The position numbers and the translations under genes were made by a program. A DNA stretch of 20,000 nt from Asterionella formosa (taxonomy: Eukaryota): assembly GCA_002256025.1 (NCBI GenBank), contig NKIB01012964.1, forward strand, positions 46,743 to 66,742, given 5' to 3'. Each line of letters opens with the position of its first letter. Positions within the stretch are counted from its first letter, which is position 1. This document shows, piece by piece, positions 3,250 through 20,000 of the stretch. The notes under the pieces are model-generated. The model made no database searches. It was not told the origin of the DNA and saw nothing but the letters and a program-made list of their open reading frames with translations.

Positions 3250-3740
3250 ACCACAGGAGTACTCCCTGGTACCAGGTACCGCATGTCGCATACGTATGAA
3301 TGAAATTCATTATAGCCAAGCAAAATCAAAAAATCGGCCTTGGTGACTGATCTTGCAAAAGATGTACAGTAATATTTTTATTTTATGTATCAGAGCGCGC
3401 CCATTATTGCTTTGCTTTCTTTGCGTCCTCCCATCGTCTGTCTCCCTCTGACAAGCAATGATTGGACATAAGTGCCTCCCCTCCGCCAATCAGCCAAACG
3501 ACAGGGTATAACACGTTTTTACTTAAAAAAATTCAGCCAAATATTTCGATTACCGGACTGTCCAGGGTAGCTACCAGGTACCCCAGGTGCCGTACAGTTA
3601 CCGTACCTGGTACCCGAGGTATACATGACTCACACATCACCCAAGAGTCAATATTTTTTAAATCACCTATTCTTTACAAGGCGAACGCGCAAGTGTACCA
3701 CTATCAGGTAGGTAGATGCAGTTTTCCGGTACCAGGAGTA
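3250..3740. promoter_or_regulatory. GGTACC/CCWGG motif cluster upstream of the cyclophilin-like gene
   Basis: CCTGGTACCAGGTACC at 3265-3280, with several TACCAGGTACC, TACCTGGTACC and CCGGTACCAGG copies between 3570 and 3737. Confidence 0.45.
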
Positions 3741-5581: not shown

Positions 5582-6189
5582 ATTGGCAAGTGGCCACCAG
5601 GAGTTCCCGGTAGACTACGGTTATGTGCAATACAATACATGATACCCAATACATAAACTGCCGAAGCCATCAAAGAAGGCACACAGCCCTGGCTGTTCAG
5701 TGTCATCATTGGAAGAAGGCAGGTTTGGCACTAGTGATCATAGCGGTCGTGGTACAGACATATTGATTTCGGACTCAATGATCATCAAATGCTGAAAAGA
5801 AGTTCCGGGAGCTACCGGTATAACAACAGCGTAGCCTCGTTGAGCGAGGGATACTCTCAAATCGATATCACGACATCCCTACCACCGGGTTTACAGCTCC
5901 TGGTGGTACCAGTTACTGGTAGTCTCATAACTTGCTTCGCGGTCGGAAACCAATCATGATGATTTGCTGGTGAGGGGCGGGTTTAATCAAGTGCATCTAA
6001 AAAGTGAAATACGTGTACCGGTACACGTTTACACATGTACCGCTATTTCTATAGTGTATTCAAAGAAAAAGCAGAAATGGCCACCATGCTCACAGCCGTG
6101 CCTTGCTGAAACAAGGCAAGACACGCCCGAGGTAGTCGCATGCCTGCTAGTACACTTGTGTTGACATATATGGCGCCTACTCTAGGTGG

Positions 6190-6525
6190 GCTCCAGTACT
6201 GCCCTGGAATGACCGGTCAAGATCTTTCTCATGCCACTGGTCTTCAGATTCTTCTGCTATATAAATCCTGTCTATTTCGGTTTAGACACTCCTCAGACTA
6301 CCTAGTCTTTGGACACCTGTCGACATCAACAGCCTAACAGACACACTCTGACACACTCTGGAGTAAACGAGAAGGCAAGGACGTACCAACTGAGAAAGGT
6401 CTTGCCATGTTGAAATGTGTGGCGTGTCTTCCTAGTGTGCTCCAGTACTGCCCTGGAATGCCTCAGACTACATCTCGCCTTTGGACACCTGTCGACATCA
6501 ACAGTCTAACAAATGCATTCTGACA
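6190..6525. repeat. Imperfect direct repeat with a 79-bp indel
   Basis: GCTCCAGTACTGCCCTGGAATG occurs at 6190-6211 and 6439-6460. CCTCAGACTAC...GGACACCTGTCGACATCAACAG...CTGACA occurs at 6291-6353 and 6461-6525. ACACACTCTG is also repeated twice at 6341-6360. Confidence 0.9.
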
Positions 6526-8864
6526 TTGTTGCAAAAACAGCAATTCACAAACTAGCTATCATCACACCATTCACTTACCTATTGCCCACAAAAAAAGCAT
6601 ACCAAAATGACACTTTATGCTTGCTATTGCCCATCATATAAAATATATTTTGTACATTTCTATATTCTCATCAAAAATCATTGCCAAGGGTCAATATTGT
6701 CCATCATTAAAATATTTTTTGAATATTTGATATGTTACCATTTTGGCAATACAATTTACACAAACTGCCCCTTGGTTTTCCATACCTGGTGGGATTCTTG
6801 CTGAAATTGGCATGTGTCTACATAAGGAAGAAACCTTTTATAAGTTGCGGTCATTTTGCTGAAATGTACAACATAACACAGGACAAGCACTCAAGTTTTT
6901 CAAAGTAAATAGAGCACATCATCAATTCTCCCTTTTAAATCGACTGTATTATGACTTAGTGATGCAGATTTTATGCTACTAATTAAGTCGTCTAAATGTG
7001 GGAATCTCAAAACAAGGGCAAATGGCTAATATAGAAAATGACAATGACCAGTGCATAAGAAGGGCGGGGTAGCCCGAAGCAATAGTAGTAAGCAAACAAA
7101 GTAATCAACGTCTGCAAATAAAAAATTATTGTACATATAGGATCAGGGGTATGTTACTATAACTGGCACGGAATTTTTCTGTGCATGATATGCATTTTGT
7201 TACTTGTGAAGGATAAACTGATGTTGCTGATGATAGCGGCGGGTTGCCTCTCCCCATTCCCTTGTACTCCATATCAGAGCTTTCCTTCATTATTAATGTT
7301 CATGTTAATGTTGTAACAACTGCGAAGCAAATACTTCTAAGTCATATTATTCTTATGCAATAACATGCAGTTCCATTCTTATTTTCACTTACCATGAATA
7401 GATGTATTTCATCACACAGGTTTCTCAAGCAACACAATGTGTCAAACAATCCATTTCGATTGTTCACTGTATTAACTAATGGGAAGTAAATGTGTGTTCG
7501 GCTTGTTTAGCTTTTATTAAAACAGGCATTTCCAATCATGATGGTTTGGTCACTTACCGCAACAATTATACGAATCCATGTTCAGTTTCCATATTCCTCA
7601 AGAAATCATGAAGACATTGATGTTCAGAACTTCCATGTACTCTTTGTATACAATTACCCTGATAGTTATAAAAGGATGTGTTACTTATGTTCTAACAGGT
7701 GATTCTTGTGAGAATTGATCCAATGACAGCACTTACTGCAACCGTCATTTCTTCACATTGAATTTGTCCCCACAAGTATGCATATACAGGTAAGCAAATA
7801 AACACTTGAAGAGAGAGCACGCATTGAGAGAAACTGTCAACCCAACAATTGAATATTCTGACATATTCCATTGACCTGCTAACGTGGCTTTTGGCCTTTT
7901 GTTCAGCACCATTCCTTATTGTGTTTCCAACGAAGTCGCAAGATATCGGTAAATTGATTGTTTTCATTACTGGTGTGGCCAGAAAAGGAAAATGATTTTG
8001 AGTTTGGAGATAATAGCACATGCAAAGTAAGCAAAATTTCTTATTGTGCCTTTGCTTCTTTTGCATACCAGCAAGCTGCGGTAAAATTGCCAAGTTGACT
8101 ATTTGGAAATATTGTATATCCACACCTGAGGATCCAATTGTAAAAAATTTAATCTGGCTAAGTCGGATAAGACTTATCTTTCATTTGTGGCATGATTGTT
8201 TAGAATAATTTTATGCTAGAATTCGATTTGGAAGGAACTATTTTAGGGTCAAACTCATTCCCCCAATCTCAAACCCGCATCCCAATCGAAAAAATTGGGG
8301 GTTTTACGTGAGAGCTAGTAGGTTCCATTGGGGTCAGATGCGCACACAGAAAGATCATCATAGAATATGTTTGTCAAGCCCCACCCATGAGTGTACTCAT
8401 GCATATGTATCGTTGTTAGCTATCATGCAAGGACAAAAATTTATGTATGGGAAAATATATAGCGGTACATCGGCTATCTTCTCCATCTCCATCTAGTCTA
8501 TGTAGAATACATATACTCGTGTCTGTCTACATTCCTGAATACAGCCATATTAACTACTATTCATATTACCTGGTACCATATACTGTATGTATCCTGAACT
8601 TACATAATTTGCTATACCGATATATGGTTGTTAAGTGTTCTATATAAGCATGTATATTCTTGGAACACGATGTTTACATGGTACCAGTGGTATTGGCAAC
8701 ATAATGGCAATGATGATAAGCCCAGCATTGTAAACAGATAATTCACGAATTATAGATCAATTGTTGTTGTTTTTAGCTACTGATGTTGTAGAATATGTTT
8801 ACTTGATTCAAGATGGTTATGTACAAACTACTCGGGTTTTGATCCGGCAAGAAATCATGGAGAT

Positions 8865-9040
8865 ATTGTCATTGTGATCAAACTCCATTTTGCTTCTGCC
8901 GATTTTCTATTTTAGCTATTTTGCAATTAATATCAAAGCTATGTCAACAATTATTGTCATTGTGGTCGAACGCCATTTTGCTTCTGCCGATTTTCTATTT
9001 TAGCTATTTTGCAATTAATATTAAAGCTATGTCAACAATT
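8865..9040. repeat. Tandem duplication, 2 x 88 bp
   Basis: 8865-8952 and 8953-9040 align with 4 mismatches (ATTGTCATTGTG...GCTATGTCAACAATT). Confidence 0.95.
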
Positions 9041-9524: not shown

Positions 9525-9945
9525 TCATACCGGCACAGTACCTGGTACCAGGTACTCGTTGTTGGCACCAAGGAGGAAAAAAGGTATGCATCGTCATGCC
9601 TGTACCAGTACCAGGGTACCAGTACTCTTATACGGTGTTACTATGCAATACTACCGGTACAGTAGTTGGGAGGAGGACGAGGAAAAGAATTGCGTATAAA
9701 TATATACACGTATGGATATCATCATTTTCTGATGTGCAAATCCATTACTGGTACCAGTACCAGTACCTGGTAACGCATTTATAAACTATGTACCGGTACC
9801 GGTATGCGGATGATATTCCCTAGCCGCGGCGAAAGTCGAATCTTTGTTAAACATACATAGTACTGGTACCAGGGGCAGGAATTCCCACGATCAGGTAGAT
9901 ACGTGGTACAAGGTCCTGGTTCTTGGTACCAGGTAGGTACCGTAA
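9525..9945. promoter_or_regulatory. GGTACC/CCWGG/ACCGGT motif cluster upstream of the kinase
   Basis: Includes the perfect palindromes AGTACCTGGTACCAGGTACT (9537-9556) and TACCGGTACCGGTA (9791-9804). The regulatory role is inferred from position only. Confidence 0.5.
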
Positions 9946-10100
9946 TAAAATCATGCCAAGAGGCCTTGTTACTACCGTAGCTCGGGTGATGGATCAGAGA
10001 CACAGAAAAGTACGCCAATCAATTCAGTCACATGCATTGTCACTTGGACTAATCTCCTCTAAAAGAATCGGTGCGGGGGTTGAGATAACAAGACATCAAC

Positions 10101-12682
10101 ATGATGAGGGCGACAACGGCGATGCGACAATCGTCGAGGCTGCAACTTGGATTTTCACAATGGAAGAAGCAACGAGTAATGAGCATTCGTGAATCAAGGA
10201 ACAGAATAGGAAGTACAGTCACACGGTCCATCTCCACAGAGCAGCAACAATCTCAAGATGTTAACAGTCAATGGATGCTGCTAGCAGCAGGAGTAGCGTT
10301 AGCGCTTTCTGCTTCTGCGGTTGTTGGGCACAGGGGTGCCGCGCAATGCGATGTTTCAACTCGGAAGTCAAAACTTAATCGAACACTTTCGTTGCGCGGC
10401 CACATTTCTCTGGAAGAAAAGTACAACATTGAATGGGATATTGTCTTGGGAGAAGGAGCATATGGAAGTGTCCACCCCGCGAGGTTAGCAGCCACTGGCG
10501 AAAAGGTATGCGGCTCTCGCTTGTACACACAGTACCAGGCCACATGCTTGTACTCACTATCACTCGCCTTGTTCGCACCTTCGCTCATCCCATCTAGCTC
10601 GCACTGAAGAAAATAAGCAAACGATACACTAACTCGAGCACATTCAAGGCTGAAGTCGATGCGCTGAAACGAATCTTTGAAATGGGCGGGCACCCCAATA
10701 TTTCAGGCCTGCGCGACATGTACGATTCGGACCCTAACTATTTCTATTTGATTTTGGATTTAGTCTCGGGTGGAGAACTCTTTGAGCACCTCATTAATTA
10801 TGGAGCGTACTCGGAACAAGATGCAGCGAGATTAGTATACGAAGTCGCGAGTGCCTTGGCATTCTTACACGGTGTCGGTGTCGTGCACGCTGATTTAAAG
10901 CCTGAAAACCTCTTGCTATGTTCCAAAAATCGAATGGATGGGACTATAAAAATTATCGATTTTGGCTGTGCCATTGTCAGCGATGATTTTGACGATATAC
11001 CTTCCTATCGACATACGGAGGAGAATGGAAGTTTCCCACCGGTGACTGCATCGACTGGAACGACGGCGTATTGGCCGCCGGAACGGTTTCAAAAAGGCGC
11101 TGTTGCCGATGCGGCAATGGACATGTGGTCTGTCGGGGTCATTTTGTACGTTATGCTAACTGGTGTACACCCATTTGACGTACATGCGGATAGTTCGGAC
11201 GATCAGATTGAGGCAAGGATTCTTAGGGACCCAACACCTCCTATTCGACCAGAACTAACCGGACACCTTTCAGAGAGTGCCATTGATTTGATTAAGAAAT
11301 TAATGCACAAGGACCCTGCAAAGCGCATGACTGCAAGGCAAATGTTGAAGAATCCATGGGTTCGCGGAGAAACAGCCTCCAAAGAAAAGATGCAAGACTC
11401 TGATAAGCGTCTGTCACAATTCAAAGATACACGCTACGAGCTGGAAGCCGGTATCTTTGGTCTCTTAGTCAAGCAAGGGCACAGGGACGTTCGTTTAAGC
11501 GAGGCTAAAGTGAAAGGTGGAAGCGAATTCGAGCATTTAGGTTCAAGCAGTATTCTGAAGCGAGCATTTGCACTCATTGATGCAGGCGGAAAAGGATACA
11601 TCAACTCAGACGATTTAGGCAGGGTTGCGAAAGAGCAAGCCAATATCCAGGTTTCTTCTAACGATACACGTGAGTTGCTCTCTAAACAAGGATCACAACA
11701 AGATATCTTGTCATTTTCGGACTTCTCTTCCCTTTTTTCGGGGTTGCATCACGAGCATTTCCCTCGAGGGCACATGATTTTTAATGCTGGCGATGACGGT
11801 GACGCCATGTATTTCTTGGCCTCTGGAAAGGTGTTAATCCAGACTCGAAAAGGACAGCTAGTTGCGACACTTAAGACCGGTGATTTCTTCGGTGAAGGTT
11901 CCCTTTTATCTGAAGAAGCCAAGCGATTTACATCAGCCAAGTGTGCTACTCCGGTCGATGTCATCCAGATTAAACGAGCTGACTTTAACAGGTACATCTC
12001 ATCGTCGGAATCAACCAAGAATGAACTTCGGCTAAAGTGGCGAGCTCGGAACCTGGACTATGCTAAAAATCTCATTCGACTGGATTCCAATGTAAGGACA
12101 AATGAATATAGTAAGGGTGAGGTGGTGTATAAAGAAGGTGATGTTGGTCAGGACATGTATCACGTTTTGGAGAACGATGGTGGTATACTAGAAGTCAGTC
12201 ATGGAAATCAAGTAGTCCACCAATATGTGAACGGAGATTCTTTCGGTGAGACATCCTTGCTCTTCGAACGACCCCGATCATCGACGGTCACTTGCGTATC
12301 TGACAAATGCCTCCTTCAAGTGATGAGTGGTGCCGACTTTCGCGCTGTAGTTGATTCGAATCCCAACATGGCGGCCGCGCTAAAAAACATGTGCCGAAAA
12401 CGGCTGTTCAAGAGGGCTATCAAAGCGTATTCTCTTAAACAAGGGCGTAGTTTGTCAAACGAGGATATTGAGAAAACTTTCGTGGAGGCAGATGTCGATC
12501 AAAGCGGAAGCTTGAATCTTGATGAAGTTGCAGAGATAATGACACGCATGGATACAAATTTTCCAAGATCGGAGATCGAGGCTCTATTGAAATATATTGA
12601 CGTCGATGAAGATGGAAAAGTGAGCATCGAAGAATTCAGACGGCTTTTTCGTCAATTCGAAGATGTGAAAGCATCGACTTAG
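10101..12682 (+). CDS. CAMK/CDPK-like Ser/Thr kinase with EF-hands and two cyclic-nucleotide-binding domains (2 exons, ~829 aa)
   Basis: Exons 10101-10505 and 10598-12682. The 92-nt intron 10506-10597 (GTATG..CTAG) gives GEK/LALKKISK in frame with the 666-aa ORF. Kinase motifs: GEGAYG, ALK, HADLKPEN, DFG, YWPPE, DMWSVG. EF loops: DAGGKGYINSDD, DVDQSGSLNLDE, DVDEDGKVSIEE. cNMP cassettes: GDFFGEGSLL..KRF and GDSFGETSLL..PRS. The exact start Met is uncertain. Confidence 0.9.
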
Positions 12683-12904
12683 AATTCACTTCATTAGTGA
12701 TTTAACATGAATTAGTACGTCAACGGGTAAGACATGGACTGAACGTGTCTCCTCTTGGTGCCAATTTATGGTTGGTTGATCACGCCTTATGGGTCTAGCT
12801 TTACATAAGAGTACAAACGAACAAATCTTTAAAAAATCATGCAGTTGGATATTTCTCCTACAATCTAAGTTAGTGAATTGGCAAGTTAGCGATCCTAAAG
12901 TGAC

Positions 12905-14620
12905 TTACACTCGCTTCAACCACAATTGACTAAAGGCCCAATCTGCGATGATTACCATCAAACTACTCATAACGACAGCAAAAGTAATGACGTCAGGCAC
13001 ATGTCGAGGTGTTAAATGGGGCCACAGACGAGCCGATAGTTCTGCCACAAGCATAGTGATGGTCATGAACGCGACTGCTTTGGTCACATGATACACTGGC
13101 GGATAGGTCCAAAATTCAATCAATGCGTCTCCATAATTTTCAGAAAAAGTGCTTCTCAAGTCGAAATTCAGAAGAGCGTCTTTAAATGTGTACTCAATGC
13201 TTCCATCATTCACCTCCCAAAGAGGAGCAAGCGAGCGAAGTCTCCAGATAGGGAAAGTCGATTTGTACACTTCTTTCAAATAGAATTGTCGCGTCCCAAT
13301 ACCATATTGTGGACCTACGTGGCTTCCCAAGAAAATTGCCAACGCTGTCCCCATGGCCGTCAAGATTGGTGCCGCCAACAAAGCCGCTGCTAAACTTGGC
13401 AACAGCGTCCAGGTGAGTGGAGATATACCCAAGGTCGCTAGCAATTTTGTTTCCGACGTTGATTTCATTGTAGCCACTTTTCCAGCGTAGGAGCCACCAA
13501 TCCTACCGCACAACAGGAGTGCCGTGAGCAAAGGGCCGATTTCCAATACAAACAATTTCCCCATTCCCATTGCGTACAGCACTGCCTTGGCCTCAGGGAC
13601 TGCTGTATTGAGCATTGACTTGACTTTGGCTTTAATCATCATGAGCATCAATGGGCTGGACTCCTCCCCAGTAATCAACTTCAACATAGGACGAACTTCT
13701 TGATCAACAATGCCTACGACCTGATTAGTTACATCGATTCGCCTCAAAATATCACAACTAAGCATAGAAATCGCTAAGCCACATGCCATGAACGTCATTA
13801 GAATCAATGGAATGGACCAGCCAATGTAGTCCGTTAATCGTTCCTTGAATCGATCAAAATTCCTAGTTCCAAAGAGATTAAGAATTTTATCTTTTTGAGA
13901 GTGTGTGTCCTTGCAGCCCCCATTGAGAGGTGCCGTCAATTCCACTATGACGTTGTTGTTTGTTGTCTCTTGTTCCATCACCATATTTGCTAATTCTGGT
14001 TCATGACTAATCAAAATAAGGGCTGTTTTATATTCCAATCTCAAGTGCACCAATTCCCTCGCGACTGCTTTGGCAGATTCGTAGTCAAGGCCAGTAAAAG
14101 GTTCATCCAACACAATGACTCGCTTGCGCTGAGCCAACTGTAGTGCAAGGGAGGCCCTTCGCCCCATTCCACCTGACAGTTCACTTGGTCGTTTATTGGC
14201 ATCGTTTTGGAAGTCCAATCCCACACTTTCAAGAAGGGTTTGTATTTGCTTGTGCAGAGGCGTCGTTGAGATGATGCTAGACGAGGCATGCATCAATGCG
14301 ACTGCCAAGTTCCCAGCGACAGTCAGTTCATCCACCAGCGTTGTTTGCTGGAATAAAACACCACAGCGCTCTTGCAGAGGAATATCATCCCTCCATTGAA
14401 TCCCCACGTCAATGTCTAGCCGATCGAGTGAACTAGAGTTGCTCAAGCCAGCCAAGTAGGTGGCAAGAGTTGTCTTCCCAAAGCCGCTGTTTCCTTTGAG
14501 CCAGACGCAGGCGCCAGGATCGAGCTGGAACTCAATGGTTGCATTTCCGAATGGGCACTTTCTTCCCTTGTTTGTGGCGTGCAATGACACTAATGGAGAA
14601 TTAGGAGACGTAGATGTCAT
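12905..14620 (-). CDS. Fused ABC ATPase (MlaF/TGD3-like) and MlaE/TGD1-like permease, 571 aa, intronless
   Basis: ATPase motifs: Walker A GNSGFGKTT, Q-loop GVLFQQ, signature LSGGM, Walker B/D-loop IVLDEPFTGLD, H-loop ISHE. The C-terminal half carries the MlaE hallmark EIGPLLTALLLCGRIGG...MKSTSE..LLATLGISP and an MlaE-like final helix (VITFAVVMSSLMVIIADWAFSQL). Confidence 0.88.
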   Translation of the reverse strand: MTSTSPNSPLVSLHATNKGRKCPFGNATIEFQLDPGACVWLKGNSGFGKTTLATYLAGLSNSSSLDRLDIDVGIQWRDDIPLQERCGVLFQQTTLVDELTVAGNLAVALMHASSSIISTTPLHKQIQTLLESVGLDFQNDANKRPSELSGGMGRRASLALQLAQRKRVIVLDEPFTGLDYESAKAVARELVHLRLEYKTALILISHEPELANMVMEQETTNNNVIVELTAPLNGGCKDTHSQKDKILNLFGTRNFDRFKERLTDYIGWSIPLILMTFMACGLAISMLSCDILRRIDVTNQVVGIVDQEVRPMLKLITGEESSPLMLMMIKAKVKSMLNTAVPEAKAVLYAMGMGKLFVLEIGPLLTALLLCGRIGGSYAGKVATMKSTSETKLLATLGISPLTWTLLPSLAAALLAAPILTAMGTALAIFLGSHVGPQYGIGTRQFYLKEVYKSTFPIWRLRSLAPLWEVNDGSIEYTFKDALLNFDLRSTFSENYGDALIEFWTYPPVYHVTKAVAFMTITMLVAELSARLWPHLTPRHVPDVITFAVVMSSLMVIIADWAFSQLWLKRV

Positions 14621-14734
14621 GCCTTTCGTGGTGCGAGGGTATAATAGTCAGCAATTCAATAAACTGATTTTGATTCCACGGAATGGTGACCTCGTAGGAT
14701 GCCGACCGTGTCGCGCTGCTTTAGTTGTTGTGGG

Positions 14735-14945
14735 AGTACCAGGTAATATTGGCAAATATTTTCATACCTGGTTCTCCAGAGCACTACTTTCATTCATACC
14801 AGGACCTGGTACCAGGTACCGGTTGACTACCCAAATTATACCGTAGCTGTAGTATGATGTGGCCTGTGGACTATAGATACCACGAGGTACCTGGTACCTG
14901 GTCCCTGGTACTGCTGTGAAAAAGTACCTGGTACCTGGTACCAGA
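14735..14945. promoter_or_regulatory. GGTACC/CCWGG motif cluster with (GGTACCT)n heptamer runs, upstream of the MlaF-MlaE gene
   Basis: ACCTGGTACCAGGT at 14804-14817, GGTACCTGGTACCTGGTCCCTGGTAC from 14886, and GTACCTGGTACCTGGTACCAG near 14924-14944. Confidence 0.5.
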
Positions 14946-15607
14946 TACTGTTAAATCTTTGCAGGTCGTCCAAGAGTATTTCTTTGACAGTTGCTGTATT
15001 CAATTACTGATAGACTACGGAATTGCTTCGGAATTAAACTACCGGTACACATGATCCGCAGCTAAGAAATAAAAAATTACTCGGTTACATACTTGAACGA
15101 TATGCCGGTAGACCTGTATCATATGAATAGCTAACCTGTAACTGTGACACGTTAATATACCGGTGCTTATACTCAGCTCCCGCCGGCCCGTAACTTCACG
15201 TTTGTGGTGGTGTTTTCCTTTGTTTTGTGAAAATATTCTTGGCCATCGCTATGCAACAGTTGCTTGTCCTGCGACAGTCGTGGCAAGCCCATCTTTGCCC
15301 TTATGTATAGTATGAGGTGTCGTTTACTATCAGTCAATGACTCACAAATATTCTTCTTTTGCTTGGCTATTCAACTCTGCTACCTGTATCGACACACATG
15401 CAGCTACCGGTACTTGTTTATCTCTATCTATATACCGGTATTGCTATGGTCGTATCTCGTCTGTCTGAGCGTCTACATTATTCCTGCTTGTTCGTTTCCA
15501 GAGACATTCTCTTTGCTTACCATTTGACCAATGATGATTGAGTCAGCCCCGCGGCAGTGGGACGAAAGTGGAGGCCCAGCATGTGGATGGTGATGTGAAG
15601 GAAAGTA

Positions 15608-17599: not shown

Positions 17600-18760
17600 T
17601 TATTCCATTTTCTTGCCCCTCGCCCGAGCGATACCAGTTGGACCATCTGGAACCTTAAATGTTCCCCAAAATCGATCACAAAATGTGAACATCTGACCAT
17701 AATTGTAAATATAGTGAGTGTGATGGACTGTGTGATACTTGCTTCCCATAATGGGATCCACATTCCAGTCCATTGCGTCATGAATGTACGTGGCCCACAC
17801 TGCCGTAAAGAACAGCATGACCATGTGAGTCGGGTAGTGACAGGGTATAGCAAAAAGCCAAATCACATAAGGACACGCTTGAAGCAGACCATCTAGTGGA
17901 TGAAAGGCAATGGATGCCCATGGAGTGAGGGTATCGGCCCTGTTGTACTTGTGATGCTGCAAATGTATATTCTTGTACATCCACTTGTTGGTGTGCAACG
18001 TTCGGTGCATCCAATAAATTCCAATTTCCACAAGAGAAAAGTATAGAATCATGCAGAATGCATGCGGGAGCCAACCTCCAATCTCGTCAATCGTGAAATA
18101 TACCTGCGTGTATCCGTTTTCCACAACAAATTCGTCAATGACAGGCAAACCAACATAGAGGAATAGACTGAGCTGCGATAGCTTGATTTGATCCCAAATG
18201 GTGTCCCAGGATGGCCGGGCGCGTTCCTTGAAGGTTTCTTGTGACCTCGGATGAACGTAAATCTGGTAGTGAAAAAAAGCGGCAGTGCCATAGTAGACGA
18301 GCGAGCCTGCGACTAAATTTCTGAGATAGCAAAGGAAATAATGACCCCACTCCATTCCCATGCTTTTGAGAACGTATCCCGCTAGCTGCGACGAGAACAA
18401 GATGGAATTGAGGAATGCATTAAAGTTCCGACAAGGATTGGCAAGCGCGTCGCCTTGCAGCAGGGCATCGTACGACGAGGAGTAGGTGTGGCCTTGGTAT
18501 TCAAACGAATCGATCCTGTCATCGGAAGCCATGCGATCGAGCCACCATGTTCCGGGGAAAGGGACTGAGGCACGGCAGCAGCGGTTAGGCGTCAGCAGAC
18601 ACGCAGGGAAACAAAACTCCTCCCATCACCTACCAGAAGGACTATCACTCCCAGTCGATACAGTCTCGTTCTTCTCCCACCACGCAGCATACGCTACAGT
18701 TGCGAATAGCAACAGAGACAGACAGAAGAAAAGGGCGGTTTGGGACGAGGAAATCGCCAT
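17600..18760 (-). CDS. ERG3: Delta7-sterol C5(6)-desaturase (lathosterol oxidase; ERG3/SC5D/DWF7 family), 2 exons, ~363 aa
   Basis: His boxes YWMHRTLH, HLQHHKY and YHTVHH, plus SIAFHPLDG and YNYGQ..FCDRFWGT. Exons 18760-18634 and 18564-17600. The 69-nt intron 18633-18565 (GTAGGT..CTAAC..CTCAG) is in frame. C-terminal KKME fits the KKXX ER-retrieval motif. Confidence 0.9.
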
Positions 18761-18917: not shown

Positions 18918-19245
18918 GTGGTACCAGGAACCGCAACGACGACGATGATAAGAATAAAAATTCTATGAAATTTTTCGTCGCAGTATGATGCCGGTGTACA
19001 CTCCTCAGCATTCAGCAGTCATCGCTCATCCTCGTGCTGCACCACTCCAAATGGCTCCCGATTTTGCTTACCGGTATCTACTCCTATTCTTTTACGTACA
19101 ATGCATGTTTACCGGGTACCCCTATGTATGGAGTAACGACACCGTTTTATTTTGAATCGATTGTGACCATACAGACTGGCAATTTTGCCTGCTACTACTT
19201 TCTTGTACCGGTACCAGGTACCTCAGGCAGGTAACACCAGGTACT
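18918..19245. promoter_or_regulatory. GGTACC/CCWGG motif cluster upstream of the sterol desaturase
   Basis: GGTACCAGG near 18920, ACCGGGTACCC near 19111, and GTACCGGTACCAGGTACC at 19205-19222. Confidence 0.4.
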
Positions 19246-19249
19246 CTGA

Positions 19250-19822
19250 TGTCATAAATATACGATAACTACATACAGAAAGGATGATCAGGGCATCGGC
19301 ATTCATACGTTGCTGTTTCCATCATGACATGTTATATGTGTAGATCAGAATTTAGTCTGGACCTACCAGGAAGGTCCGGTAAAACACGGCTTTTACTTAA
19401 TGACAGACGAAGCTAAATATCTCGATCAACGGACCTTCCAGGATGTTGAAAGGTCTCGTACTCCTTCCCGTCTGACGGGTTCCTCTTACGTAGAACTTAC
19501 CTGCTATACCACTAGTATTGTTATCTTCTTTCTGCTGCTAGCCTTCGTGCTAGTTTTCGCTATTGACCTTACTCTGTCAATTCTCACTGTTTCTTAATTA
19601 TAAGATTAAACTAAAACTAAGTTTCAATCCCATTCATCACACTTCGAGAACCTGTTCTTCGTGTTCCCTTTTCGTTGATGTAAACCTTCTTCTGATTGAT
19701 CTAAGACATCAATCTCGTTAGCAAGCTTCTTGACATGGGAACGCACCATTTGACTCATTGGACTATAGTCGAGTCCACAGTCCTTGTGACTCATTATAGC
19801 CATTGATGCTATATTCTTGACA
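19250..19822 (-). repeat. Putative 3' LTR, 573 bp
   Basis: Starts TGTCAAGAATATA (minus strand, 19822) directly after the PPT. The other end reads TGTCATAAATATA on the plus strand at 19250, an 11/13 terminal inverted repeat with TG...CA ends. The partner LTR is not in the window. Confidence 0.7.
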
Positions 19823-20000
19823 TCCTCCTCGTTACCATGTTCAAGAAGTTCTAAAATTGTACCACTCAGCACGGGTCCAGATAACCTTGTAAAAATCTGC
19901 TCTTTGACATTCTTCGTCAAAATGTCTGCTGGATTGTTTTCTGATCTTAGAAAAACAATATGCAACTCACCCTCATCTATCATGTTCTTGACATGATGAA
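19624..20000 (-). CDS. pol: Copia Pol C-terminus (RNase H), 5'-partial
   Basis: Open frame from the window edge to a TGA at 19626-19624; NPADILTK motif. Confidence 0.85.
   Translation of the reverse strand, partial: HHVKNMIDEGELHIVFLRSENNPADILTKNVKEQIFTRLSGPVLSGTILELLEHGNEEDVKNIASMAIMSHKDCGLDYSPMSQMVRSHVKKLANEIDVLDQSEEGLHQRKGNTKNRFSKCDEWD
19823..19830 (-). other. Polypurine tract GAGGAGGA
   Basis: Purine run between the RNase H motif and the TG start of the LTR. Confidence 0.7.

Follow-up and report, generated by a model that had tools for sequence, protein, structure and literature searches.

An ABC ATPase-MlaE permease fusion in a diatom and its relatives, a candidate MCE-independent half-transporter

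In a 20,000-nucleotide stretch of the genome of the diatom Asterionella formosa (contig NKIB01012964.1; hereafter the window), an intronless gene on the minus strand, 14620-12905, encodes in one stop-free translation of 571 amino acids (aa) both an ATP-binding cassette (ABC) nucleotide-binding domain (NBD) and a transmembrane domain (TMD) of the MlaE family. On balance, we take its product to be a homodimeric, ABCG-like half-transporter that handles a hydrophobic lipid independently of any MCE protein, with family-specific hairpins serving as a cap and with a location in the endoplasmic reticulum (ER) or plasma membrane. Loss of the helix IF1, the hairpin itself and the lack of linkage to mlaD in bacterial relatives point to this independence. 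To our knowledge, the MlaE-type permeases known from structures (Mla, Mce1 and TGD) all work with an MCE ring, and independence of such a ring is the surprising part of a family that is apparently undescribed. An earlier reading of the stretch (the original prediction) had allowed that the fusion might be an already characterised family; we found no description of the architecture or family in the open-access literature, although supplements to surveys of horizontal gene transfer in diatoms may list the gene, and databases already show the ABC_tran and MlaE pair under generic names.

The gene is real and expressed. A single contig of RNA run X4 (12847-14715) covers it with no differing letter, and because this contig is unbroken while the same run splices the intron of the neighbouring kinase gene (10504-10595, GT..AG), the fusion is neither an assembly nor a gene-calling artefact. 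One contig of run X2 also spans the open reading frame (ORF), and run X6 covers it piecewise; run X7 resembles DNA from another strain. Run X4 leaves 9800-10167 and 14952-15300 without cover. The uninterrupted ORF of the original prediction, with a complete NBD followed by an MlaE-type permease, is thus shown by translation, Pfam and RNA, and transcripts do not split it in X4 or X2. The reading frame meets a stop 10 codons upstream, and no ATG occurs in the 100 nucleotides before the start; an N-terminal extension is impossible without splicing, and no upstream exon was seen in the RNA runs. The gene and its parts are as follows.

12905-14620, minus strand: whole coding sequence, NBD-TMD fusion, 571 aa, intronless (ORF, Pfam, RNA)
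12847-14715, minus strand: RNA contig of run X4, no joint; its ends are not necessarily transcript ends
13931-14593, minus strand: NBD, aa ~10-230, without the long C-terminal extension of the MlaF type (Pfam, model)
14471-14494, minus strand: Walker A, GNSGFGKT, aa 43-50
14165-14179, minus strand: ABC signature, LSGGM, aa 148-152, the same word in 55/58 family rows and 39/39 MlaF rows of our alignment
14102-14119, minus strand: Walker B, VIVLDE, aa 168-173, catalytic Glu intact
14003-14005, minus strand: H-switch, H206
13862-13930, minus strand: short flexible linker, aa 231-253 (pLDDT 57-59), in place of the MlaF tail and the IF1 helix of MlaE
13739-13861, minus strand: IF2 (connecting helix) and transmembrane helix (TM) 1, aa 254-294 (model)
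13589-13738, minus strand: family-specific helical hairpin between TM1 and TM2, aa ~295-344, on the outer face by MlaE topology, with an amphipathic helix at 298-317
13430-13588, minus strand: TM2 (LFVLEIGPLLTALLLCGRIGGSYAG) and coupling helix, aa 345-397
13256-13420, minus strand: TM3 and periplasmic/luminal helix, aa 401-455
13106-13249, minus strand: second variable outer-face insertion, aa ~458-505, long in diatoms, absent from the bacterial and choanoflagellate rows shown
12914-13102, minus strand: TM4 and TM5, aa 507-569, with K514 and D560 as equivalents of E. coli MlaE K205 and D250

The two Pfam domains that this architecture requires both score far over their cut-offs: ABC_tran at aa 29-175 (E 1.2e-20, 75 bits, cut-off 25) and MlaE (PF02405), with its best stretch at aa 352-453 (E 5.6e-21, 75.6 bits, cut-off 22.5). 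Pfam gave no ABC2_membrane match in the transporter, and the NCBIfam cut-offs for canonical MlaE are missed (64 vs 212.2 for TIGR00056; 46.8 vs 315 for NF033619). The ATPase motif set is complete (Walker A, Q91, signature, Walker B, D-loop and H206). Foldseek placed E. coli MlaF at rank 2 among near ties, and the top 25 NCBIfam models did not single out MlaF. Full-length structure match lists were dominated by the ATPase. The membrane domain was compared alone, using AlphaFold models with pLDDT of 91.6 over the full length and 95.1 over the membrane domain. Its best matches were YrbE1 (8fed_I; Z 24.2, root-mean-square deviation (rmsd) 2.8, 224 residues aligned) and MlaE (7ch8_G; Z 23.1, rmsd 2.4, 222 aligned), followed only at Z 10.3 by the next match and at Z 6-9 by ABCG, ABCA, LptF/G and MacB. 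As modelled, the domain is the five-helix MlaE/YrbE fold, complete with coupling and periplasmic helices.

From this fold the family departs in three ways, as judged on an alignment that kept, after removal of near-duplicates, 58 of 76 family members, along with 39 of 81 canonical pairs and 6 other fusions. Firstly, the structural alignment begins at residue 38-41 of the MlaE and YrbE chains, past IF1, which is therefore missing; an IF1-type motif (LxxF/LG) precedes IF2 in 39/39 canonical MlaE rows and in 4/58 family rows. The stretch from the H-switch to TM1 measures 51-164 residues in the family (median 55, 72 rows), while in canonical MlaF the tail after the H-switch His takes up 50-87 residues by itself, so this tail, a part of the MlaB site, has been lost too. 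Through its LxxF/LG motifs, IF1 is reported to hold four of the six MlaD helices (PMC7790496). Secondly, the span from G281 to G362 is 67-91 aa in 58/58 family rows, against 34 in 39/39 canonical rows and 31-40 in nine of nine NBD-first fusions that lack the hairpin, which amounts to an insertion between TM1 and TM2 of 33-57 residues beyond the canonical span in every family row and no canonical one. In the models this insertion is a hairpin of two helices (aa 298-317 and 323-344) with near-invariant V301, P311, G318, K332 and P342, and its position would place it on the face where MlaD docks. Thirdly, the buried Glu/Lys/Asp network (E360, K514 and D560) is kept, while polar sites at the lipid are not: R97 of E. 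coli MlaE, reported to contact lipid phosphate, has R or K at its equivalent in 0/58 family rows against 33/39 canonical rows, and the TM1 Gln site, which its motif suggests to be E. coli Q73, is Q in 0/58 against 37/39. Hydrophobic residues stand at both sites in the family. N-glycosylation was rejected as evidence of topology: a sequon at aa 338-340 occurs in 72/113 homologues and a cytoplasmic loop carries one in 67/113, while the query has none.

A homodimer model of the membrane domain (aa 250-571) scored 0.36, where the best control scored 0.00; its runs agree on at least 88% of contacts, with pLDDT of at least 70, and the predicted interface is formed by TM1, TM2 and TM5. The mark for this score is reached by 21/30 microbial homodimers and 0/23 single chains. 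Fold and dimer model both agree with the proposal of the original prediction, a half-transporter built from Mla parts that is likely, by the model, to homodimerise; its architecture stood, but it had missed the bacterial fusions, the loss of IF1 and the hairpin.

Bacterial members of the family are rare. In the ESM Atlas, the same Pfam pair falls into one eukaryotic and two Myxococcota-rich clusters, and when species genomes were scanned with the alignment of the membrane domain, 98 pattern matches came down to 12 loci, 11 with single NBD-TMD ORFs and one cut by a contig end. Carriers made up 9/300 genomes of the Chlamydiota-phylum set, 3/301 of the Myxococcota-phylum set and 5/151 of the Myxococcota-order set, and one member is named as Coxiellaceae. 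Pfam found no MlaD, MlaC, MlaA or STAS in the 127 of 149 ORFs scanned at the 12 loci, and whole-genome searches of the 16 bacterial carriers gave no MlaD match within 99 kb of the family gene on its contig. A separate canonical mlaE lies beside mlaD in 12/12 carrier genomes checked; the nine Chlamydiota-phylum carriers have a single MlaD match each, beside canonical mlaE in the six checked. Neighbouring genes differ between phyla, with no conserved partner. In three Chlamydiota-phylum loci the fusion directly follows recA, which is on the opposite strand (L084 6112-9334, L088 6206-9316 and L090 4156-7349), and a 5-formyltetrahydrofolate cyclo-ligase gene comes after it in L084 and L090, the two scanned, a stable site among housekeeping genes. 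In the window, no MCE family was matched in the 14 ORFs scanned with Pfam, as the original prediction had stated.

The hairpin-less MlaF-MlaE fusions (P0220, P0206, P0281, L125, L129, L131, L133, L139 and L140), on which we found no paper in the open-access literature, share the NBD-first order and one branch of the tree with the family. They differ in that their TM1-TM2 loop is still short, the TM1 Gln is retained and the segment before IF2 is longer. Among 401 Myxococcota-phylum genomes (three candidates scored per genome), 21 match P0220 and six hold stop-free fusions, all six with mlaD directly downstream; these six form one clade and represent about one event. Other bacterial combinations of Mla parts were seen: besides the MlaF-MlaE fusions next to mlaD (the six L loci just named), there are fusions in the reverse order, MlaE-MlaF (P0328, P0330 and P0337), and an ABC_tran plus MlaD protein (P0343), and fusion of Mla parts has, on these sequences, happened more than once. 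Some 45 proteins of 500-580 aa (P0282-P0327), labelled MlaF-like and without an MlaE domain, two of them named Kofleriaceae and Bradymonadaceae, are probably tandem ATPases.

Several observations weigh against our preferred reading of an MCE-free half-transporter. E. coli MlaE lacking residues 1-25 is reported to complement, the MlaD-binding part of IF1 being dispensable (PMC7790496), and while deletion of residues 1-39 is reported to abolish function, R97A is reported to be without phenotype. The losses of IF1 and R97 need not, therefore, carry the meaning that our reading gives them. Six canonical rows also lack R or K at the R97 site, and the equivalent of D198 is lost in most hairpin-less fusions too. 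The putative clash between hairpin and MlaD follows from position only, not from superposed coordinates. The dimer was computed from membrane domains without their ATPase halves, and the hairpin is not among its confident contacts; in a eukaryotic benchmark 17/29 reach the mark, with only 1/7 among those for which no earlier structure of a relative exists, and the predictor may have passed this dimer by remembering MlaE dimers already solved. Because MlaD is encoded elsewhere in each of the 16 bacterial carriers, it could act in trans; contigs sometimes stop close to the family gene (L082 and L099), and the 16 carrier and six hairpin-less loci come from a few related clades rather than independent events.

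These points bear most directly on the strongest of the alternatives, which we nonetheless judge unlikely: that the fusion is the core of an otherwise ordinary MCE system whose MlaD-like ring, or some partner not yet recognised, is encoded elsewhere and docks onto it. A partner in trans would be in keeping with the presence of MlaD somewhere in every bacterial carrier, with the mlaD genes adjoining the nearest relatives of the family, and with reports that MlaD also binds the MlaE core (PMC7790496). However, linkage to mlaD was found in none of the 16 carriers, the lone MlaD of the Chlamydiota-phylum carriers already has a canonical mlaE beside it in the six checked, the hairpin would occupy the face on the ring side, and Phaeodactylum tricornutum carries the gene yet is entered without TGD2 in the supplement to a plastid-transporter atlas (PMC9546453, file 4, which also gives 'No' for TGD1).

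The same architecture was sought, as the original prediction had suggested, and was found in diatoms, other protists and few bacteria. A homologue search found 448 among 8000 scored. Of the best 120 of these, 119 have both Pfam domains, the remaining one being a 422-aa fragment; identities are 49-77% apart from a near-identical top match, and the readable species are all diatoms (Attheya, Seminavis, Odontella, Nitzschia, Pseudo-nitzschia, Cylindrotheca and Cyclotella). Wider searches, with a profile against 1.84 billion representatives and with divergent members as queries, in which the best 120 or 150 matches were examined, added Vitrella brassicaformis, Mucochytrium quahogii, the haptophytes Haptolina and Prymnesium, one pelagophyte and the choanoflagellates Diaphanoeca grandis, Salpingoeca infusionum, Didymoeca costata, Bicosta minor, Savillea parva and Choanoeca flexa; diatoms, both centric and pennate, are represented. 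As the distribution rests on these best matches, gaps in other groups are not evidence of absence. A metagenome scan was flooded by the ATPase pattern, with 77/80 loci being ordinary bacterial ATPase or mlaF-mlaE (mlaE adjoins the ATPase in 64/77 bacterial loci retrieved, a selection that favours such loci), and none of 36 pattern matches on viral contigs was a relative. Some diatom members have a SAP domain (PF02037) before the ATPase (P0096, P0099, P0100, P0104 and P0105). Two ecological links were dropped: one with silica, suggested by diatoms and loricate choanoflagellates, since Salpingoeca, Choanoeca and bacteria also carry the gene, and one with marine life, since the best-matching runs are from lake or fresh water.

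This distribution bears on the plastid. The chloroplast ER, the outermost plastid membrane of diatoms, is continuous with the ER, and a second alternative is that the diatom transporter is a missing TGD-like lipid importer in this membrane, where it would need no bipartite peptide. Its attraction is that an MlaE/TGD1-fold protein occurs in diatoms of both centric and pennate type, a pelagophyte, haptophytes and Vitrella, and that P. tricornutum is described in a 2026 review as having no known TGD homologues, with plastid lipid import in diatoms unexplained (PMC13235166). The P. tricornutum member lies in the cluster of P0056 as EEC46462.1, a partial model of 180 aa that matches aa 31-210 of a 584-aa protein and thus the ATPase half only; this could explain the TGD-negative statements. 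FAT1 of Skeletonema was considered and set aside, being a P-type ATPase unrelated to the transporter (PMC6805942). We regard the importer as improbable. Six choanoflagellate species and Mucochytrium carry the family without a plastid, the family is unlike Arabidopsis TGD1, which by eye has the short 34-residue loop and keeps the Gln, Arg and Asp (PMC9546453), and there is no evidence of targeting: in crude tests on 101 complete N-termini, a hydropathy scan found a signal-like hydrophobic stretch in one and a plastid motif (h-region plus ASAF-like) was found in none. The plastid framing of the original prediction, 'TGD3-TGD1-like', is not upheld, given the lack of a targeting peptide and the plastid-free carriers.

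Lipid transport is itself plausible from family membership, and the least likely of the alternatives is that the transporter left it to move some other hydrophobic or amphipathic small molecule (a xenobiotic or metabolite), like a MacB- or ABCG2-type pump; we doubt this, for although the polar residues for lipid headgroups are lost, the NBD-first homodimer layout is common to MacB and ABCG and the bacterial neighbours are unrelated between phyla, no other fold comes anywhere near as close as MlaE/YrbE, whose members all handle lipids, and acyl-CoA dehydrogenase, thiolase/ChsH2-type and short-chain dehydrogenase/reductase genes surround several Myxococcota-order loci (the genome background of such genes was not subtracted). 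Chlamydiota and Coxiellaceae live in eukaryotic cells. Because of these carriers, the changes in the pocket and the thiolase/ChsH2-type genes upstream in 2/6 Myxococcota-type loci, a sterol is our single best guess at the substrate, tentative and well short of an even chance. A link with sphingolipid was dropped, as the upstream aminotransferase of three Myxococcota-type loci resembles PRK08960 and is not a serine palmitoyltransferase.

The family forms one branch in separate trees of the two halves (SH-aLRT 100 and 99), and therefore the halves travelled together. These separate phylogenies, which the original prediction had proposed, contain no TGD and no cyanobacterial sequence; the NBD tree has no non-MlaF outgroup. 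In a concatenated tree of 35 rows, diatoms group with the pelagophyte (100/100) and these with choanoflagellates and one unassigned transcript (97/98), while 8/9 bacterial members group apart (94/90). The family is nested, on a long stem flagged by the tree program, within the hairpin-less fusions, the joint branch having 100/99 in this tree and SH-aLRT 99 in a quick tree. In the free tree, bacterial members lie among eukaryotic ones, eukaryote monophyly is not rejected (AU p 0.21) and the root falls on a long branch. The fusion most likely, as far as the sequences tell, originated in bacteria and has been in protists for a long time. There is no support for a recent transfer from bacteria to diatoms, because the GC content at third codon positions (GC3) of 0.49 is like that of the neighbouring genes (0.43-0.55), a homologue on contig L003 is interrupted by GT..AG introns and the diatoms group with the pelagophyte and choanoflagellates. 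The suggestion that the intronless structure is compatible with acquisition from bacteria fails on these three grounds, and its claimed uniqueness among six genes is doubtful, as a desaturase-like gene in the window is also a single ORF.

In comparison with known systems, the family shares with MlaFEDB (E. coli, P. aeruginosa 7ch8 and A. baumannii; type VIII) the five-helix fold, the E-x-G-P...G-R motif, the buried Glu/Lys/Asp network, the LSGGM signature and, by prediction, the dimer pocket of TM1, TM2 and TM5. In contrast to the four proteins of MlaFEDB, it has one chain, which lacks IF1 and the long MlaF tail, has the hairpin and carries hydrophobic residues in place of R97 and the TM1 Gln, and it has no linked mlaD and no mlaC, mlaA or STAS among the neighbours scanned. 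Mycobacterial Mce1, which supplies the best structural match (YrbE1A/B with MceG, 8fed), consists of a YrbE heterodimer, a separate MceG and an Mce needle, as against one fused gene with no MCE gene among the window ORFs scanned. The plant and green-algal TGD1-TGD2-TGD3 system likewise joins an MlaE-family permease to an ABC ATPase in a eukaryote, with subunits reported to be separate, plastid-located and accompanied by an MCE subunit (PMC5948301), unlike the family, in which transit peptides are lacking and some carriers are protists without a plastid; the TMD profile matched 5 PDB sequences, none of them a TGD1 chain. Reports of eukaryotic type I MCE proteins are from Chlorophyta and Streptophyta and otherwise from a few animal entries, all but one of which are ascribed to contamination (PMC5561183). 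With ABCG the family shares the NBD-then-TMD order, the junction at the connecting helix and the homodimer layout (by model here), and IF2 of MlaE is reported to be the connecting helix of ABCG (PMC7790496). The membrane folds of ABCG (Z 6.5-8.1), ABCA (8.5-8.8) and MacB (6.3) are nevertheless distant, with five helices in the family, not six or four. ABCA and MacB carry an extracytoplasmic domain between TM1 and TM2. On this evidence, the likeness to ABCG, ABCA and MacB is convergent and not ancestral.

The ATPase and the MlaE-fold domain are joined in one chain at IF2, a junction as in ABCG. Under the preferred reading, an MCE-free homodimer for a hydrophobic lipid, two copies would pair through TM1, TM2 and TM5, creating the usual pair of ATP sites around a pocket that is central and hydrophobic. 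Such a dimer would operate without a ring of MlaD or TGD2 and without MlaB, and the hairpins would cap the outer mouth of the pocket, where an MCE ring would sit; all of this we hold fairly firmly. More weakly, ATP-driven closure of the pocket might flip or extract a hydrophobic lipid, and, weakly again, the cargo might be a neutral lipid such as a sterol rather than a glycerophospholipid. The eukaryotic proteins would use TM1 as a signal anchor that directs them to the ER or plasma membrane and not to the inner plastid membranes. Such a system would have descended from an MlaD-using bacterial MlaF-MlaE fusion, giving rise to an MCE-free clade that is old in protists and patchy in bacteria. 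A bolder proposal, to which we give little credence, is that the hairpin replaces the MCE ring throughout an unrecognised eukaryotic ABC subfamily whose diatom members sit in the chloroplast ER and supply the missing lipid-transfer step, the family being a living parallel to the way in which ABCG- and ABCA-style pumps can arise from multi-subunit bacterial ones.

Eukaryotic genes flank the transporter: a kinase with EF-hand and cyclic nucleotide-binding domains, a RING protein and the sterol-desaturase-like gene. The kinase (10101-12682, plus strand) has EF-hands and two cyclic nucleotide-binding domains in one chain, and three RNA runs confirm its intron 10504-10595. The kinase and transporter genes converge at their 3' ends, and both are crossed by RNA contigs of X2 and X6. 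About 3 kb from the transporter, 17600-18532 on the minus strand is a single ORF (ATG at 18532, running to 17600) for a 310-aa protein of the fatty-acid-hydroxylase family (PF04116), which we take, from its motif, to resemble sterol C5-desaturase. GGTACC-rich palindromic repeats lie between genes (14797-14953, 9535-9940, 3265-3614 and 19204-19235), with an inverted pair upstream of the transporter; they are probably a dispersed repeat of the genome, because short pieces of them match many unrelated contigs. An open frame at 19624-19998 on the minus strand had no Pfam match at E 0.01, with a start that is presumably similar to a copia-type retrotransposon at its RNase H end. Gene-poor, low-GC DNA at 8864-9039 and 6159-6525 holds an 88-nucleotide tandem duplication (95% identity) and two repeats of 52-53 nucleotides.

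If our reading is correct, this single-gene version would be the simplest system in which to ask how the MlaE fold moves lipid and in which direction, and would add a new type of membrane domain to the eukaryotic ABC repertoire. The carriers include ecologically weighty algae and the choanoflagellates, the sister group of animals. The printed statement that P. tricornutum has no TGD1 homologue is to be qualified, as an MlaE-fold gene is present whose NCBI model ends after the ATPase half, and this diatom is genetically tractable.

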